From: Armatimonadota bacterium | GTDB taxonomy: Bacteria; Armatimonadota; Zipacnadia; Zipacnadales; UBA5352 | Reading direction: 5' to 3' | Assembly (NCBI GenBank): GCA_034722055.1 | Contig: JAYENL010000210.1 | Location: 1 to 28,828 of the forward strand | DNA: 28,828 nucleotides | Part shown: positions 9,324 to 18,031 of the stretch, piece after piece | How positions within the stretch are numbered: position 1 is the first letter of the stretch | How the letters are laid out: the number at the start of each line of letters is the position of its first letter | Notes under the pieces: generated by a model | The model's input: the letters and a program-made list of their open reading frames with translations, nothing else | Database searches by the model: none | Told to the model about the DNA's origin: nothing | Program-made: the position numbers and the translations under genes

Positions 9324-10940
9324 TCATCGTCGGGCGAACACCCGGACGGTGGGGCCATTACCGGTGGAGACCTCGTGCACCTTCTCCCAGCCCCAGGCTC
9401 CCTCGAACAGGGCCTGGTAGAAGCGCCGCCTCTGCTCGAACTCCGCAGCCAGCTCGCTGCCGGGCGGGGGCGGCAGACGTGTGAAGCGGCCGAACTCGAA
9501 GAACCGGGCGTAGGCGGTGGAGCTGGTGACCAGCCAGTCGGCGTCGGTGTCGCGCAGGAAAGCCTCGGTGTACTGGATGTCACGCCCCGTGAAGACCCGC
9601 AGGCCGGCATAGAGGCGCCGGACGCGCTCGGTACGCAGGCCCTCGGTCAGCGGATCCACCTCCTCGTGAGTGAGCAGGCGGGGGACGTCGATCCAGTCCA
9701 CACTGACGACGGCGTCATCTGGCAGGTGCGCGTTCAGCCACTGGCGTGCGACCCCGAGGCTGTCGGGCACCATTGCGACGCGGTAGCCCCAGAACAGCCC
9801 GCACGCCGCTGAGCCCACCAGCACAACGGCGCACAGCCACCGGTAGCCGCGCCCGGTCCTCCCCCCGGCCGCCACTCCGCACACCACCGCCAGCACGGGA
9901 TAGAGCCCGAAGAGGTACTGCAGCGACTGCTTCCTGGCCGGGGCGGCCATGGCGAACACGGCCACGGCCGCAGCCGCCAGCACCAGCCGGCCGGGATCGG
10001 GGCTTCGGCCCCTCACCAGCAAGAGCACCAGCCCCAAGGCGGCCAGCGCCGTCACGGCCGGATCGGCGGTGACGAGCAGCTCGAGCTGCCCCAGCACGGG
10101 CACGCCCATCATCCCCAGGTGGCCGCGTGCCATGTGTGCTCGCTCGTACGCCAGGCCCTGCCAGTAGTGCCCGGGCGCGAGCAGCCACCCCGGGCAGCCC
10201 ACAAGGAAGGCCGCCACAGCGCAACCCACCATGATGCCCACCAGCCGAACGCGGATACGCCAGTCGTCTGCGGCCAGCAGCGATGCAACTAGCAGTGGCA
10301 GGGCCAGGGCCGTCGCGGTGTACTTCGTCGCCATGGCCAGGCCGGCAAAGAGGCCCGCCAGCACCGCACTGCGCCGCACATGCTCCCGGCGCGCCAGGCG
10401 AGCGGCCTGCACCAACGCCAGCGCCAGCCACATCGTCATGGCCACGTCCGGGAGGCCGTAGCCGCTGTACTCCAGCGTCCCCAGCGCGGCGCCGAAGGCC
10501 GCCGCCGCCAGCAGCCCCGGCCCCCACCGTCCCAGGCTCTCCGCGGCCAGCCGATAGACCGCCCATGCGCAAACGCACCAGCAGGCCACGCTGACCAGGC
10601 GCGCCGGCCACATGGCCGCCTCGGGAGCGTAGGCGGACCACTCCGACATGTCGTAGATCGACGGGGGCATGCCCCGGAGGACCGAGGCCGCGAAGAACGC
10701 GGCGGTCACCGGGGCGGTCATGTAGCTGTAGAGCGCCGGGTACTGGGTGTGCTCGGGGATGATGGTACGGTGCTGGATGAACTCCCAGAGGTTGCCGAGA
10801 ATGACGAACTCATCGCTGAAGACCGGCTGCCGGGTGGCCAGCACTCTGGCCAGCGCGCCCATCGCAAGCGCGCAGATGAGGGCGACCGCCAGAGCCACCT
10901 CACGGCGGCCCCTCGAAAGCTGGTGGCGACCCGCTGTCAC
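9324..10940 (-). CDS. Polytopic membrane glycosyltransferase, GT-C fold (ArnT/PMT, family 39/83-like)
   Basis: SDE acidic motif after TM1, YPALY, ARLVS, PDV, GLAMATKY; many TM helices; soluble C-terminal domain. Confidence 0.8.
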   Translation of the reverse strand: MTAGRHQLSRGRREVALAVALICALAMGALARVLATRQPVFSDEFVILGNLWEFIQHRTIIPEHTQYPALYSYMTAPVTAAFFAASVLRGMPPSIYDMSEWSAYAPEAAMWPARLVSVACWCVCAWAVYRLAAESLGRWGPGLLAAAAFGAALGTLEYSGYGLPDVAMTMWLALALVQAARLARREHVRRSAVLAGLFAGLAMATKYTATALALPLLVASLLAADDWRIRVRLVGIMVGCAVAAFLVGCPGWLLAPGHYWQGLAYERAHMARGHLGMMGVPVLGQLELLVTADPAVTALAALGLVLLLVRGRSPDPGRLVLAAAAVAVFAMAAPARKQSLQYLFGLYPVLAVVCGVAAGGRTGRGYRWLCAVVLVGSAACGLFWGYRVAMVPDSLGVARQWLNAHLPDDAVVSVDWIDVPRLLTHEEVDPLTEGLRTERVRRLYAGLRVFTGRDIQYTEAFLRDTDADWLVTSSTAYARFFEFGRFTRLPPPPGSELAAEFEQRRRFYQALFEGAWGWEKVHEVSTGNGPTVRVFARR

Positions 10941-11058
10941 AGCCCATCCCTCCGCGAATCCGGCGGCCGGTAGCGCCGCTGGGGAGGATTCGCCGAGTGC
11001 ATCGGCAATCCTTCACCGGAGGAAGCCCCGGCGCCTCGATCACCAAGCATGGAGGGAG

Positions 11059-13509
11059 ATGCGGCAAGTGGCGACCACCGGCGAGCTACCGGCGGAGCAG
11101 TGCCGCTGGCACTGCGACCCGACGATCTACCAGTTCGAGACCACCGAGGAGCTGCCCGAGGAGGTGGCGCCCATCGGGCAGGAGCGGGCCACCCACGCCC
11201 TGGAGTTCGGGGCCTCGATGAGCAGCGAGGGCTACAACGTCTTCGCCCTGGGGCGGCCGGGCAGCGGCCGGCGCACCATCGTGATGGATACGCTACGGCG
11301 GCACGCCGCGGAGATGCCAGCGCCTGATGACTGGTGCTATGTGTACAACTTCGACGAGCCCCGCCGCCCCCGGGCGCTGCGGCTGCCATCAGGGATGGCG
11401 GTGGACTTCCGCGAGGACATGGAGGAGCTGATCGAGGACGTGGACCGGGAGATCACCCGGGCCTTCGAGAGCGAGGAGTACCAGCAGCGGCGGGAGGAGG
11501 TGCTCAGCGAGTACCGGGATGATCGCGCCCAGACGCTGCAGGAGCTGGAGCGGGAGGTGCAGGAGAAGGGCCTGGCCATCGGCCGGGGCCCCACGGGGCT
11601 GGTCGTGGCGCCGGCGAAGGATGGCGAGGTGCTCAGCCCCCAGGAGTACCAGCAGCTCCCACCGGACGAGCGGGAGGAGATCGAGCGGAAGCGGCGCGAG
11701 ATGCAAGAGAAGCTCGAGGAGGTGTTGCGGCGCGGCCAGCGGCTTGAGAAGCAGGCCCGGCAGAAGGTCGCGGAGCTGGATCGCGAGGTTGCTGAGTTCG
11801 CCATCGGCGGTCTCTTCGAGGACATCAGGGAGAAGTACCGCGATCTGGAGGACGTTGCCAACTACCTGGGCCAGGTGCGCGAGGACATCATCGACAACGT
11901 GGACATCTTCCGCGCCGATCGGGAGGCCGAGGAGGAGGAGCAGGCCGGCAGGCTCCGTCAGCCGCTGGGCATGGGCGTGCAGGATATCCCGCACAGCCCC
12001 TACAACCGCTACGCCGTCAATGTGCTCATCACCCACAAGGGCGAACAGGGCGCGCCGGTGGTCTTCGAGACGAAGCCGAACATCGAGAACCTCACCGGCG
12101 ACATCGAGCACCTCCCTTACATGGGGGCGCTGCTGACCGACTTCACCATGATCAAGGACGGCGCGCTGCATAAGGCCAACGGCGGCTACCTGGTGCTGGA
12201 GGCGCTGACGCTGCTGACCCGCCCCTTCGCCTGGGAGGCGCTGAAGCGGGCGCTGAAGGAGGCGGAGGTGCGCCCCGAGTCCATCCGCGAGCACCTGCGG
12301 CTGGTCTCCACGGTGACCCTGGAGCCTGAGCCGATCCCCCTGGATGTGAAGGTGGTGCTGATCGGCACCCCGCTGCTGTATTACCTGCTGTACGAGCACG
12401 ATGAGGACGTGCAGAAGCTCTTCAAGGTCAAGGCCGACTTCGGCGTGCTGATGGACCGAGACCCGGACTCGCTGCAGAGCTACGCGCACTTCGTGGCCGC
12501 CTGCTGCCATCGGGAGGGCCTGCCGCACTTCGTGCCGGAGGCCGTGGCTCGGGTGGCGGAGGAGGGCGCGCGGCTGTCCGGCGACAGCGAGAAGCTCACC
12601 GCCCACTTCCTGGAGGTGGCCGACCTGGTGCGGGAGGCGGGCTACTGGTGCCAGAAGGCCGCCCAAGACAGGGTGCGGCCCGAGCACGTGGAGCGGGCGG
12701 TGGAGGACAAGATCTGGCGTTCCAACCGCATCGAGGAGCGGCTCCTGGAGCTGATCGAGCAGGGGACGTTGCTCATTGACGCGGAGGGGGAGGTGGTGGG
12801 ACAGGTCAACGGCGTGGCTGTGCTGCCGCTGGGGGACTACGTCTTCGGAAAGCCCACACGCATCACCGCTCGCAGCTTCCTGGGCAAGCCCGGTGTGATC
12901 AACATCGAGCGTGAGGCGGAGCTGGCCGGTCCCATCCACAACAAGGCCACGATGATCCTGGGAGGCTACATCGGGGAGCGGTTCGCAGTGGATTACCCCA
13001 TGAGCGCCGCGGCGACGGTGGCCTTCGAGCAGGTCTACGAGGAGGTGGAAGGCGACAGCGCCGCCGCTGCAGAGCTCTACGCACTGCTCTCGACCATCGG
13101 CCAGGTGCCGCTCCGGCAGGACCTGGCGGTGACCGGGTCCGTGAACCAGCATGGCCACGTGCAGGCGGTGGGTGGCGTCAACGAGAAGACCGAGGGCTTC
13201 TTCGCCGCCTGCAAGCTCTCCGGGCTCACCGGCAACCAGGGCGTCATCATTCCGGCGTCCAACGCCCGCAACCTGATGCTGCGCCAGGAGGTTGTGGACG
13301 CCATCGAGGCCGGGCAGTTCCACGTCTACGCGGTGGAGACCGTTGAGGAGGCTATGGAGCTGCTCACCGGCCTGCCCTTCGGCGAGCGGGATGAGGAGGG
13401 CAACTTCCCGCCGGACACCGTCGGTGCGGCCGTGCAGAAGAGGCTGGAGGAGATGGCCGAGACCCAGCAGCAGTACCGCTCCAGGGGCGAGGAAGCGCTG
13501 GGGCAGTGA
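11059..13509 (+). CDS. Lon-family (S16) protease, LonB/LonC-like with coiled-coil insertion
   Basis: IGQERA, GRPGSGRRT P-loop, GALHKANGGYL, EPEPIPLDVKVVLIG, VGQVNG; catalytic Ser (EGDSA) and Lys (GGVNEK); ATG after GGAGGGAG. Confidence 0.92.
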   Translation: MRQVATTGELPAEQCRWHCDPTIYQFETTEELPEEVAPIGQERATHALEFGASMSSEGYNVFALGRPGSGRRTIVMDTLRRHAAEMPAPDDWCYVYNFDEPRRPRALRLPSGMAVDFREDMEELIEDVDREITRAFESEEYQQRREEVLSEYRDDRAQTLQELEREVQEKGLAIGRGPTGLVVAPAKDGEVLSPQEYQQLPPDEREEIERKRREMQEKLEEVLRRGQRLEKQARQKVAELDREVAEFAIGGLFEDIREKYRDLEDVANYLGQVREDIIDNVDIFRADREAEEEEQAGRLRQPLGMGVQDIPHSPYNRYAVNVLITHKGEQGAPVVFETKPNIENLTGDIEHLPYMGALLTDFTMIKDGALHKANGGYLVLEALTLLTRPFAWEALKRALKEAEVRPESIREHLRLVSTVTLEPEPIPLDVKVVLIGTPLLYYLLYEHDEDVQKLFKVKADFGVLMDRDPDSLQSYAHFVAACCHREGLPHFVPEAVARVAEEGARLSGDSEKLTAHFLEVADLVREAGYWCQKAAQDRVRPEHVERAVEDKIWRSNRIEERLLELIEQGTLLIDAEGEVVGQVNGVAVLPLGDYVFGKPTRITARSFLGKPGVINIEREAELAGPIHNKATMILGGYIGERFAVDYPMSAAATVAFEQVYEEVEGDSAAAAELYALLSTIGQVPLRQDLAVTGSVNQHGHVQAVGGVNEKTEGFFAACKLSGLTGNQGVIIPASNARNLMLRQEVVDAIEAGQFHVYAVETVEEAMELLTGLPFGERDEEGNFPPDTVGAAVQKRLEEMAETQQQYRSRGEEALGQ

Positions 13510-14004: not shown

Positions 14005-14033
14005 TTGCAATGCGCCTCGCCATGCTGTATACT
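14005..14033 (+). promoter_or_regulatory. Putative sigma70 promoter of the rimP-nusA-infB operon
   Basis: TTGCAA-17 bp-TATACT upstream of the leader hairpin. Confidence 0.7.
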
Positions 14034-14062: not shown

Positions 14063-14098
14063 TGGGAGTGGGCCGCTGGCCCACTCCCATTCTTTTCT
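14063..14098 (+). promoter_or_regulatory. rimP leader attenuator hairpin
   Basis: TGGGAGTGGGCC-gct-GGCCCACTCCCA followed by TTCTTTTCT, between promoter and rimP. Matches the widespread GAGTGGG..CCCACTC rimP leader. Confidence 0.8.
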
Positions 14099-14139: not shown

Positions 14140-14625
14140 ATGAACATACGCAAGCATCCGGTGGTGCGCAAAATCGAGGCCGAAGTCGAACAGACCGTTG
14201 GCGACTTCGGCTATGAGCTGGTGCAGCTCAAGTACGGCGGCGAGGCGGGCGGCAAGACGCTCTCGATTCTGATCGACAGGCCGAAGGGCGTGAGCGCCGA
14301 GGACTGCTGCGACATGAGCCGGCGCCTGTCCATGCTGCTCGACACGCTGGACCCTATTCCCAGCTCCTACACGCTGATCGTCTCGTCGCCCGGGCTGGAC
14401 CGCCCACTGACCCGCGACAGCGACTTGGAGCGCTTCGAGGGAGAGATGGCGGCGGTGAGGCATCCCACCGGGGACGGCGGCTGGCGCACCGACACGGGTG
14501 TCCTGCGGGGTGTACAGGATGGCGAGGTGATCATGGACGTGGACGGCGAGACTCTCCGGGTGCCACTGGCGGAGATAGAGGAGGCTCACCTGGTCTACGA
14601 CTGGGACGCCGAGGAGGCCCAATAG
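14140..14625 (+). CDS. rimP: Ribosome maturation factor RimP
   Basis: GYELV, LIDRPKGVSAEDC..SR.LS..LD..DPI...YTL.VSSPGLDRPL; directly upstream of nusA. Confidence 0.95.
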   Translation: MNIRKHPVVRKIEAEVEQTVGDFGYELVQLKYGGEAGGKTLSILIDRPKGVSAEDCCDMSRRLSMLLDTLDPIPSSYTLIVSSPGLDRPLTRDSDLERFEGEMAAVRHPTGDGGWRTDTGVLRGVQDGEVIMDVDGETLRVPLAEIEEAHLVYDWDAEEAQ

Positions 14626-14660: not shown

Positions 14661-15926
14661 ATGAACGGTGAATTCATAGAAGCCCTGGAGCAGCTCCAAC
14701 GCGAGAAGGACATCCCGATGAGCGCGCTCATCGAGACGGTGGAGGCCGCTATGGCGTCGGCCTACCGCAAGCACTACGGCGCGAACGATGACGTGCGGCT
14801 GGAGATCGACTTCGAGAACCGCACGGTTCGCATGTTCGCCAAGACGCTGGTCGAGGGGCCGGAGGATGGCAAGGTGCCCGACGACGATCAGACGGCGGGC
14901 GTGCACTACGAGGAGCATGAGGTTGACGCCGCGGAGTTCGGCCGCATCGCGGCCCAGACGGCCAAGCAGGTCGTCATGCAGCGGGTGCGGGAGGCCGAGC
15001 GCGAGATCGTCTTCGATGAGTTCAGCCATCGCGTCGGCGAGATGATCACCGGCGAGGTGCAGCGCAAGGATGCCCGCAACGCCTTCATCGCCGTGGGGCG
15101 CACCGAGGCGCTGCTGCCTGCCAACGAGCAGATCCCGGGCGAGACCTTCCGGTTTGGGGATCGCCTCAAGCTCTACGTGCTGGACGTGCGCAAGACCACG
15201 CGCAACCCGCAGATTATCCTCTCGCGAAGGCACCCGGGGCTGGTGGTGCGCCTGTTCGAGCAGGAGGTCCCGGAGGTCTACGACGGAGTGGTGGAGATCA
15301 AGTCGGTGGCGCGGGAGGCCGGCGCCCGCTCCAAGGTGGCCGTGATCTCCGGCGATGCGCAGATCGACCCCGTGGGCGCCTGCGTGGGCCACCGGGGGGC
15401 GCGGGTGCAGTCGATCGTGGACGAGCTGCGCGGTGAGAAGATCGACATCGTGCGCTACTCGGAGGACCCATCGGAGTATCTCAAGAGCGCCCTGTCGCCA
15501 GCCAAGGTCTCCCAGGTGCAACTGAATGAGGAGCAGCGCTCAGCGGTGGTGGTGGCTCCGGACGACCAGCTCTCGCTGGCCATCGGCCGGCGCGGGCAGA
15601 ATGTGCGTCTGGCGGCCCAGCTCACCGGCTGGCGCATCGACATTCAGAGCCACACTCAGTGGGAGAGCGAGGCCGAGCGCGCCGCCGAAGAGGAGGCCGC
15701 CGCGGCCGAGGAGGAGGCCAAGCGGGTCCGGGTCTACGAGCTGGCCAAGGAGCTCGAGGTCCCCAGCGCCGAGCTCGTGGAGATCATGCAGGAGGAGGGC
15801 ATGGACGTCACCAGCCACGCCTCCAGCGTGACCGCCGCGGAGGCCGACATCATCCGCGACCTGCTGCTCGGCGGCGAGGGGACGCTGGACGACATCGAGC
15901 TGGGCAACATCGAGATCGAGCTGTGA
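14661..15926 (+). CDS. nusA: Transcription termination/antitermination factor NusA with C-terminal IF2_N-like extension
   Basis: [13 protein letters not shown]1 domain, [46 protein letters not shown]. Confidence 0.97.
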
Positions 15927-15982
15927 TACCGGCGCGCCAGGCGTGCCATGCAGTGACGGATTGACGTGCGGAGGTGTAGGTC

Positions 15983-18031
15983 TTGGCAGACCAGGTCCGA
16001 ATCTTCCAGCTTGCCAGGAAGCTAGGGTTGCGTACGCAGGCCCTGCTGAAGGTCCTTGCCGAGCTGGGCGTGGAGGACGTGACCGCGGCCTCGAGCATCG
16101 ACATCGAGACCGCCCGCGCTGCCGCGGAGCTGCTCGCCGAGCAGGCCCGGGAGGCGAAGCAGCGTGCCGAGGAGGAGGCCGCCCGTGCCGAGGCCGAGGC
16201 GGCCGAGGCGGCTGAAGCGGAGGCAGCCGAGGCCGAAGAGGAGGTCGTGGAGGCCGAGGAGGTTCCTGCAGAGGAAGAGGAGGAGCCCGAGGCCGAGGAG
16301 TACGAGGTGGAAGAGGAAGAGGAGGAAGAGGAGGAGTACGAGCGCTTTGTGCCCGCCTGGGCGGCGCCTGAGAGCCTCCGAAGCCTCGAAGAGCAGCTTG
16401 CCGAGCTGGAGGAGGACCTCGAGGAGGAAGAGGAGGAGGTCTACGTCCCCCTCCCCGAGGAGGCCCGCCGGCCCTCCGGCGAGCGTCCCGAGAACGCCAT
16501 CGACGTCCCCCCGGTCGTCTCCGTGCTCGGTCACGTTGACCACGGCAAGACCACCTTGCTCGACGCCCTGCGTGAGACGAACGTGGTGGACAGCGAGTCC
16601 GGCGGCATCACCCAGCACATCGGCGCGTCCGAGGTGCAGGTTGGGGAGCAGACGATCGTCTTCGTGGACACCCCCGGCCACGCCGCCTTCACGGCCATGC
16701 GAGCCCGCGGCGGGCAGGTGGCCGATATTGTGGTGCTGGTGGTGGCCGCCGATGACGCGGTGATGCCTCAGACGGTGGAGGCCATCGGCCACGCCCGGGC
16801 GGCCGGCGTGCCCATCATCGTGGCCATCAACAAGACAGACCTGCCCGGCGCAGACCCCGACCTGGTCAAGCAGGAGCTGCTGGAGCACGAGCTGGTCGCC
16901 GAGGACTACGGTGGGGACACGATCATGGTGCCCATCTCCGCGCTCCAGCGCGAGAACCTGGCCGACCTGCTGGAGATGATCCTGCTGCTGGCAGAGGTCC
17001 AGGAGCTGTGGGCTGACCCCGACGCGCCCTTCACCGGCGTGGTGGTGGAGGCGGGCATGGACGAGAGCCGCGGCCCGGTGGCCACCGTCCTGGTACGCAA
17101 CGGCGAGATCCAGGTGGGCGACGTGGTCATCTGCGGCACCGCCAACGGGCGCGTGCGGCGGCTCAATGACTGGCGGGGCAAGTCCGTCAAGAAGATGGGC
17201 CCGGGCCATCCCGTGGAGGTCATCGGACTCTCGGACGTTCCGGAGGCCGGGCAGATCATGGCCCGGGCCGAGAGCGTCAAGCAGGCCCGGGAGGTGGTCG
17301 CCGAGCGCGAGGAGCAGATCCGCGAGGAGCAGCTTGAGGGCACCGCCCGCGCCTCGCTCCAGGACCTCTACCGGGAGCTGGGCGAGCTGGAGGTCAAGAG
17401 CCTCAACCTCATGCTCAAGGCCGACGTCTGGGGCTCCGTCCAGGCCCTGGAGGGCTCGCTGATGGAGCTGGACGAGCAGCTCGAAGAGGTGGAGATCACC
17501 GTCATACACACCGGCGTGGGCGATGTGACCGAGTCCGACGTGCTCCTGGCCGTGGCCTCCGACGCCATCATCCTGGGCTTCCACGTGGGGGTCCCCGACA
17601 CCGCCGAGCGCACCGCCGAGGCCGAGCACGTGGAGATCCGCACCTACGACGTGATCTACGAGGCCATCGAAGATATCCAGCGCGCCATGGTGGGAATGCT
17701 CGAGCCCATCTACGAGGAGCGCGTGGTCGGTCATGGCCGCGTCCTGCAGACCTTCCGCATCTCGCGGGTGGGCGTGGTCGCGGGGACGGTGGTCACCGAC
17801 GGCTTCGCCCAGCGCGGCGCCGACATGGTGGTCACTCGCGACGGCGAGGTCATCTACGAGGGCGTGCTGGAGTCCCTGAGGCACTTCGACGAGGCTGTGC
17901 GACGTATTGAGGCGCCGAACGAGTGCGGAATCTCCACCGCCGACTTCCGCGGCTGGCAGGAGGGCGACGAGATCGAGTTCCGCGCCAGGGTGGAGGTGCC
18001 CCGGGAGACCTCCTTCGAGAGCGCACGATAG
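15983..18031 (+). CDS. infB: Translation initiation factor IF-2
   Basis: TTG start after [51 protein letters not shown]. Confidence 0.97.

Follow-up and report, generated by a model that had tools for sequence, protein, structure and literature searches.

A described counterpart of the locus reported here is the contact between initiation factor IF2 and NusA in Escherichia coli. Domain I (N1) of E. coli IF2-alpha binds the C-terminal part of NusA, as detected in pull-down and in cross-linking assays, and the accompanying model places N1 in contact with KH2 and AR1 of NusA (Metelev and Johansson 2025, PMC12297416; available portions of the article). In these portions, the generality of the IF2-NusA link was left open, both termini were described as not conserved and a natural fusion was not mentioned. 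E. coli N1 also speeds the recruitment of IF2 to the 30S pre-initiation complex (10.64898/2026.06.26.734871, available part). The N2 domain sits on 16S h16, the minor groove of which is its docking site, and the residues upstream of N2 were unresolved (10.64898/2026.06.26.734871, PMC12820379; available parts). A single IF2N domain in IF2 is common (57/191 genomes; PMC1780047, available excerpt), and 4KJZ is an IF2 structure of Thermus thermophilus (PMC5037330, available excerpt, which does not mention the location of the N domain). The lengths of the IF2 N-extension and the NusA C-extension showed a weak negative correlation with r -0.18 (10.64898/2026.02.08.704698), and the available text of this source contains neither 'fusion' nor 'Armatimonad'. 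No description of a NusA-IF2_N fusion was found in the literature outside subscription papers; the architecture is visible in Pfam annotations of databases.

The window analysed was a stretch of 28,828 nucleotides from a genome of Zipacnadia, a class of Armatimonadota. Its features are listed in the table. NusA comprised NusA_N, S1 and two KH domains by Pfam, followed in frame by an IF2_N domain, as the initial annotation had proposed from the letters. PF04760 matched amino acids 355-400 (nt 15723-15860) with 42.5 bits (E 5.5e-11) at a cut-off of 25.3. Searched across the whole genome, PF04760 gave exactly two matches, the NusA tail with 46 bits and the IF2 N-terminus. The core NTD-S1-KH1-KH2 scored 391.8 bits with TIGR01953 against a cut-off of 253.4, and the top Foldseek matches of the protein were NusA. 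The AF2 model had a mean pLDDT of 85.8. Behind the helical linker, the tail was modelled with helices at 358-365, 369-378 and 392-403 (block pLDDT 81-91), which matches the fold expected of PF04760, three helices packed compactly within about 50 residues. The tail profile found the IF2 N domain as its best PDB match (4b3x, which we take to be Thermus thermophilus IF2, and 5lmv; E 6e-15), and both had the pattern RxYxLAKEL...SHAS in common. As a lead, the ESM Atlas returned IF2_N clusters at 0.79-0.81. No AR or HhH family was detected in NusA by Pfam at E<=0.1. The acidic end motif had no match in PDB or Pfam; a suspected resemblance to the AR repeats of NusA gained no support.

Table. Features of the nusA-infB locus in the window
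Feature	Position	Strand	Basis
rimP, which opens the run rimP-nusA-infB-DUF503-rbfA-DHH-truB-ribF	14140..14625	+	Pfam RimP_N, E 1.2e-19
nusA, 421 aa, NTD-S1-KH1-KH2-linker-IF2_N-acidic end motif	14661..15926	+	ORF, Pfam, TIGR01953
GXXG loop of NusA KH2, GRRG	15585..15596	+	Loop comparison across NusAs
Ala/Glu linker of NusA, aa 331-354, predicted helix	15651..15722	+	Alignment, AF2
N1-type IF2_N on NusA, aa 355-403, RVYELA...SHAS, three predicted helices, net charge -7	15723..15869	+	
Acidic NusA end motif GGxGTLxxLxxG, order-specific, no known family	15870..15923	+	Comparison of class genomes
Shine-Dalgarno GGAGGTG of infB, 6 nt before TTG	15970..15976	+	Sequence
infB, 682 aa, for an IF2 that has N1 but lacks N2, TTG start at 15983	15983..18031	+	
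IF2's own N1, drifted motif RIFQLA...TAASS	15992..16138	+	
LExxL helix within acidic IF2 linker	16373..16408	+	Conservation; AF2 predicted helix
IF2 G1 motif GHVDHGKT	16529..16552	+	

The junction between KH2 and tail was spanned without joints by contigs from 4/4 sequencing runs, all of one study and two of them possibly the source of the window. PF04760 was present in 120/120 of the best NusA homologues listed. Together, these two results rule out a misassembly or a frameshift as the cause of the fusion, which is real.

The infB gene has its own Shine-Dalgarno sequence and TTG start, as first read, and a similar GGAGGTG..TTG arrangement was present in relatives. The gap between nusA and infB is 56 nt and holds neither ylxR nor L7Ae. 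Their reported absence extends to the genome, with no match to PF04296 or PF01248 anywhere in an assembly that is 92.7% complete. IF2 retains one IF2_N (aa 4-49, 34.8 bits), and the N2 profile found no N2, in agreement with the annotated single copy. The IF2 linker had been described as only poly-Glu. Glu does make up 52 of its 124 residues, yet the linker also contains an amphipathic helix conserved in the order, the LExxL helix, which occupies the place of N2 in other Armatimonadota IF2s. In the IF2s of the order, which lack N2, this conserved helix and a PLPExARRP motif lie before the G domain (window 16373-16474, +). The window's IF2 starts with the same kind of N domain as Thermus thermophilus IF2 (4b3x, 4kjz, 5lmv); a long predicted helix comes after it, and N2 is missing. 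In Thermus, however, the N domain opens IF2, whereas the additional copy here ends NusA and is followed by the order-specific acidic motif. IF2's own N1 showed the same predicted helix pattern as the NusA tail in AF2, and the two aligned at an hhalign probability of 97.8. Only 14/49 residues are identical between them, so the copy is old.

Within the class, the NusA alignment extended to the tail in 75 of 79 genomes (G033 partly, at a contig end). The tail was absent from G162 and G163, and in G171 and G178 NusA stops at the contig edge before the tail. Named records with a tail were labelled candidate division WS1, Ca. Zipacnadia or Armatimonadia. Family f7 (four genomes, L035-L038) carries a degenerate tail that was missed by Pfam and reached 15-35 bits with the tail profile; its YE and SH motif is lost, its hydrophobic pattern survives together with the GGxGTL end motif, and ylxR is kept in 3/4. 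Outside the class, no PF04760 was found within NusA in 56 other Armatimonadota genomes, and the tail profile had 0 matches against 45 fetched out-of-class NusA frames. The end motif GGxGTLxxLxxG was present in 39/40 genomes of the order and in 0/8 tail-bearing class members outside it. In the NusA-core tree, the tail distribution in Armatimonadota needs one change. Two tail-bearing clades were recovered at SH-aLRT 100 in the NusA+IF2 tree, their union at 7. The fusion is an old, conserved variant of NusA and not a new system. A second, distant NusA-KH-like match was seen in G035 (C49:684-1556, -), with 26-31% identity in two stretches of a 706-aa open frame.

Among 48 homologues, column identity was 0.75 in the tail, 0.76 in the NusA NTD and 0.45 in the linker (aa 331-354). 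The linker varies in length among homologues, which suits a tethered domain. Ser, His and Ser of SHAS were invariant in 30/30 aligned tails, a set chosen by motif pattern. Selection on the tail is supported by this conservation.

The initial annotation implied that the tail was the second IF2_N missing from IF2, and this identification did not hold. Identity of the tails was 35-40% with N1 and 21-25% with N2. In a tree of 48 columns, for which 138/206 extracted domains were kept with a limit of two for each family and type, N1 and N2 were split at SH-aLRT 99 and every tail lay with N1. The window's tail has the YE and SH motif of the N1 type. Profiles for N1, N2 and tail were built from the fetched loci. 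The N2 profile, seeded with 15 sequences from among these loci, scored no NusA tail above 11 bits and gave none on that of the window, against mostly 20-87 bits on true N2 domains. Before the G domain, N2 was matched with 10 bits or more in 45/45 out-of-class IF2s and in G162, G163, G091, G127, G168, G169 and G170. With the same profile, N2 was absent from IF2 in f45, f46 and all 39 genomes of the order with an IF2 N region. The five tail-bearing genomes G091, G127, G168, G169 and G170 thus keep three copies, NusA tail, IF2 N1 and IF2 N2. A displaced N2 is ruled out by the N1-type identity, the weak N2 scores and these three-copy relatives.

The tail is a duplicated N1-type domain by sequence type, and the three-copy genomes indicate that N2 was lost afterwards in a subclade. 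Of the two origins first offered, deletion or duplication, the latter is borne out by the three-copy relatives. A simple deletion joining nusA to infB is ruled out, because ylxR persists directly behind the tailed nusA in nine genomes (f7 3/4, f44, f45 twice, f46, f9 and f47) and IF2 keeps its N1. The ylxR gene was missing in f1-f6 (0/36) and f8 (0/3) and present in 19/19 out-of-class genomes. We infer that both the loss of N2 in the subclade and the loss of ylxR followed the gain of the tail. These observations would fit a ylxR-infB 5' stretch that was duplicated in tandem and then underwent a deletion, or else an ectopic copy.

The two elements of the N1 motif, scored as [YWH][ED] and [ST]H[ASVT][ST], were distributed unevenly between the copies. 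In families f1-f6 of the window's order, the tail held both elements in 35/35 genomes, a count that leaves out G018 with YA for YE and SHAS kept, and IF2's own N1 held them in 0/36. This pattern can be read as a hand-over of the N1 contact. In f8, f9 and f47 both copies hold the motif, the elements being present in the IF2 N1 in 4/5 and 5/5. In f7 it is lost from NusA (0/4) and from IF2 (0/3). The IF2 N1 domains of tail-less genomes had the first element in 17/35 and the SH element in 8/35, after 12/47 genomes without an N1 match over 15 bits were dropped. Since the SH motif is rare in tail-less IF2s and lost in f7, its loss from IF2 need not stem from the fusion. The net charge of the tail is -7 in the window and on average -5 in the order.

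The KH2+tail profile was searched against 1.84 billion representative proteins. An IF2_N-like stretch was present in 26 of the 150 matches listed, and some of the listed matches were clean C-terminal NusA-IF2_N fusions outside Armatimonadota. P0127-P0129, P0131, P0132, P0134 and similar proteins were rejected as fusions; they are long, of high GC and look like frameshift read-throughs from nusA to infB. For P0335 and P0388, the C-terminal IF2_N was confirmed by Pfam. A search with one of the clean fusions, P0164 (aa 270-402), listed PF04760 in 119/120 proteins, and the named ones among those listed were mostly Margulisbacteria, Saganbacteria or WOR-1, with two Helcococcus and one labelled Sulfotelmatobacter. 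The Helcococcus NusAs P0376 and P0388 likewise end in IF2_N, the motif here being SHMS. In Margulisbacteria and Helcococcus the tail was always N1-type and placed after KH2. Five tailed WOR-1-like loci had an IF2 with N1 and N2 in three cases, with N2 only in one (L137) and with a start lacking N1 and cut off by the contig end in one (L138). The IF2s of these latter two loci (L137:4638 onward, L138:4632 onward) lie directly behind the tailed nusA and have a Lys/Pro-rich start. The 571-aa protein P0219, which is neither IF2 nor NusA, carries N1-type IF2_N in four repeats, of which three follow each other closely in tandem.

We tentatively favour the reading that the tail is a tethered protein-docking tag handed over from IF2, most likely towards the initiating 30S subunit, which seems plausible on the comparative evidence but is far from assured. 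The 5' end of infB would have been duplicated long ago, placing a copy of N1 on the C-terminus of NusA, after which N2 would have been lost from IF2 and IF2's own N1 would have drifted. The N1 contact would thereby have passed from IF2 to NusA. NusA bound to RNA polymerase could then reach the partner normally contacted by IF2 N1, most likely the initiating 30S. Since the acidity of the tail speaks against touching rRNA directly, the 30S would probably be contacted via a protein. Little would be won by fusing a tag to the very target that it binds; the tail more plausibly brings NusA to the target of N1. The IF2s without N1 in 2/5 tailed WOR-1-like loci speak for the docking tag, and N1 beside the tail in 3/5 of them speaks against a hand-over. 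The reading is also favoured by the recurrence of N1-type tails after KH2 in other lineages and by the effect of E. coli N1 on IF2 recruitment (10.64898/2026.06.26.734871), and disfavoured by N2 being the resolved 30S anchor (10.64898/2026.06.26.734871, PMC12820379). Being a single small protein, the fused NusA offers a way to look for N1's partner. The graded relatives, with three copies, N2 lost, motif moved or motif lost as in f7, provide natural controls.

The main rival, docking in cis, is rather unlikely, though favoured by the fact that the sole proven N1 partner in the available portions of PMC12297416 is NusA itself. The tail would then fold onto NusA's own KH2 in the manner of an AR domain and gate RNA binding or block IF2, uncoupling IF2 from NusA. 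In the E. coli complex, too, a domain of this class from IF2 meets NusA on its C-terminal side next to KH2 (PMC12297416, available portions). The tail occupies the position of AR1. E. coli-type AR1/AR2 likewise form an acidic folded domain after KH2, but this is unrelated to the IF2_N found here. The drift of IF2's own N1 would be expected were its site on NusA occupied. The acidic tail also coincides with a doubly basic GXXG loop in KH2, present in 48/48 tail-clade NusAs (one GRHG) and in 0/46 tail-less ones, with two genomes not parsed. This loop is one clade event, however, and the association is phylogenetically confounded; the Margulisbacteria and Helcococcus fusions retain GKEG in 118/120. 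The E. coli complex is moreover transient, forms in trans, required an AR-containing fragment and includes IF2 strands 57-90 in its model (PMC12297416, available portions), whereas the NusA-N1 of the window is covalent and has no AR repeat in its NusA. The N1 types differ as well: no E. coli IF2 chain occurred among 10 PDB matches of the tail profile at E<=10, so the two are distant in sequence.

The domain may also have gained no new partner at all, having been retained to cap the acidic NusA C-terminus for solubility or stability, or by neutral entrenchment. In every carrier examined nusA lies next to infB, which eases such duplications and would explain their recurrence. In f7 the motif decayed and the hydrophobic pattern stayed, and the motif is often gone from the IF2 of tail-less relatives. 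This explanation is nevertheless improbable in view of tail conservation equal to that of the NusA NTD and of the invariant Ser, His and Ser, seen not only in the motif-chosen set but also in the 35/35 tails picked by profile.

More doubtful is a bridge in which the tail binds the drifted N1 or the LExxL helix of IF2 and so rebuilds the E. coli-type link with new parts. It would account for the fact that one clade has both the NusA end motif and the LExxL helix, each specific to the order, and the two genes are adjacent. Yet both new elements are acidic, their co-appearance in one clade is not co-evolution, and the tail is older than both, as f8, f9 and f44-f47 have it without them. That the tail binds RNA, as the initial annotation speculated, here as a helix-turn-helix-like nucleic-acid-binding module widening the RNA-binding surface of NusA, is very improbable, since its negative charge and N1 type oppose this, even though the tails of other lineages (mostly Margulisbacteria-like) are basic with a mean of +2.6 and N2, the known anchor in the h16 minor groove (10.64898/2026.06.26.734871, available part), belongs to the same Pfam family and is itself absent from the window's IF2.

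The tailed groups Margulisbacteria, Helcococcus and Armatimonadota are distant from one another and separate in the NusA tree, and an independent origin in the three lineages is likely. A single clade of tailed lineages was not rejected by AU tests (p 0.44 and 0.18), so the recurrence is no proof of convergence. A wider reading, in which three lineages independently moved N1 onto NusA and hard-wired transcription to translation initiation, with elongating RNA polymerase carrying its own tag for the initiating 30S and IF2 then shedding its anchors, appears somewhat unlikely; were it correct, the fusion would expose a conserved job of N1. Anchor shedding would here mean that N2 was lost and that the N1 motif decayed or N1 was lost; IF2 states were sampled in the Armatimonadota genomes and the five WOR-1-like loci. 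The occurrence of the NusA-N1 fusion throughout the class and in two other phyla is evolutionary evidence for N1 at the transcription elongation complex beyond E. coli. One carrier outside the class is a named species, Helcococcus massiliensis.

An Rfam scan of the window gave 0 matches. The leader of rimP-nusA-infB contains a promoter-like site at 14005-14033 (+), a consensus match only, and downstream of it, upstream of rimP, a 12-pair G+C hairpin that carries a T-rich tail at 14063-14089 (+). Judged by their sequence, the two would suit an attenuator of the operon. Upstream of the operon lies a gene for a LonC/LonB-like AAA protease at 10747-13509 (+), with Pfam matches to AAA_32, LonC_helical and Lon_C.
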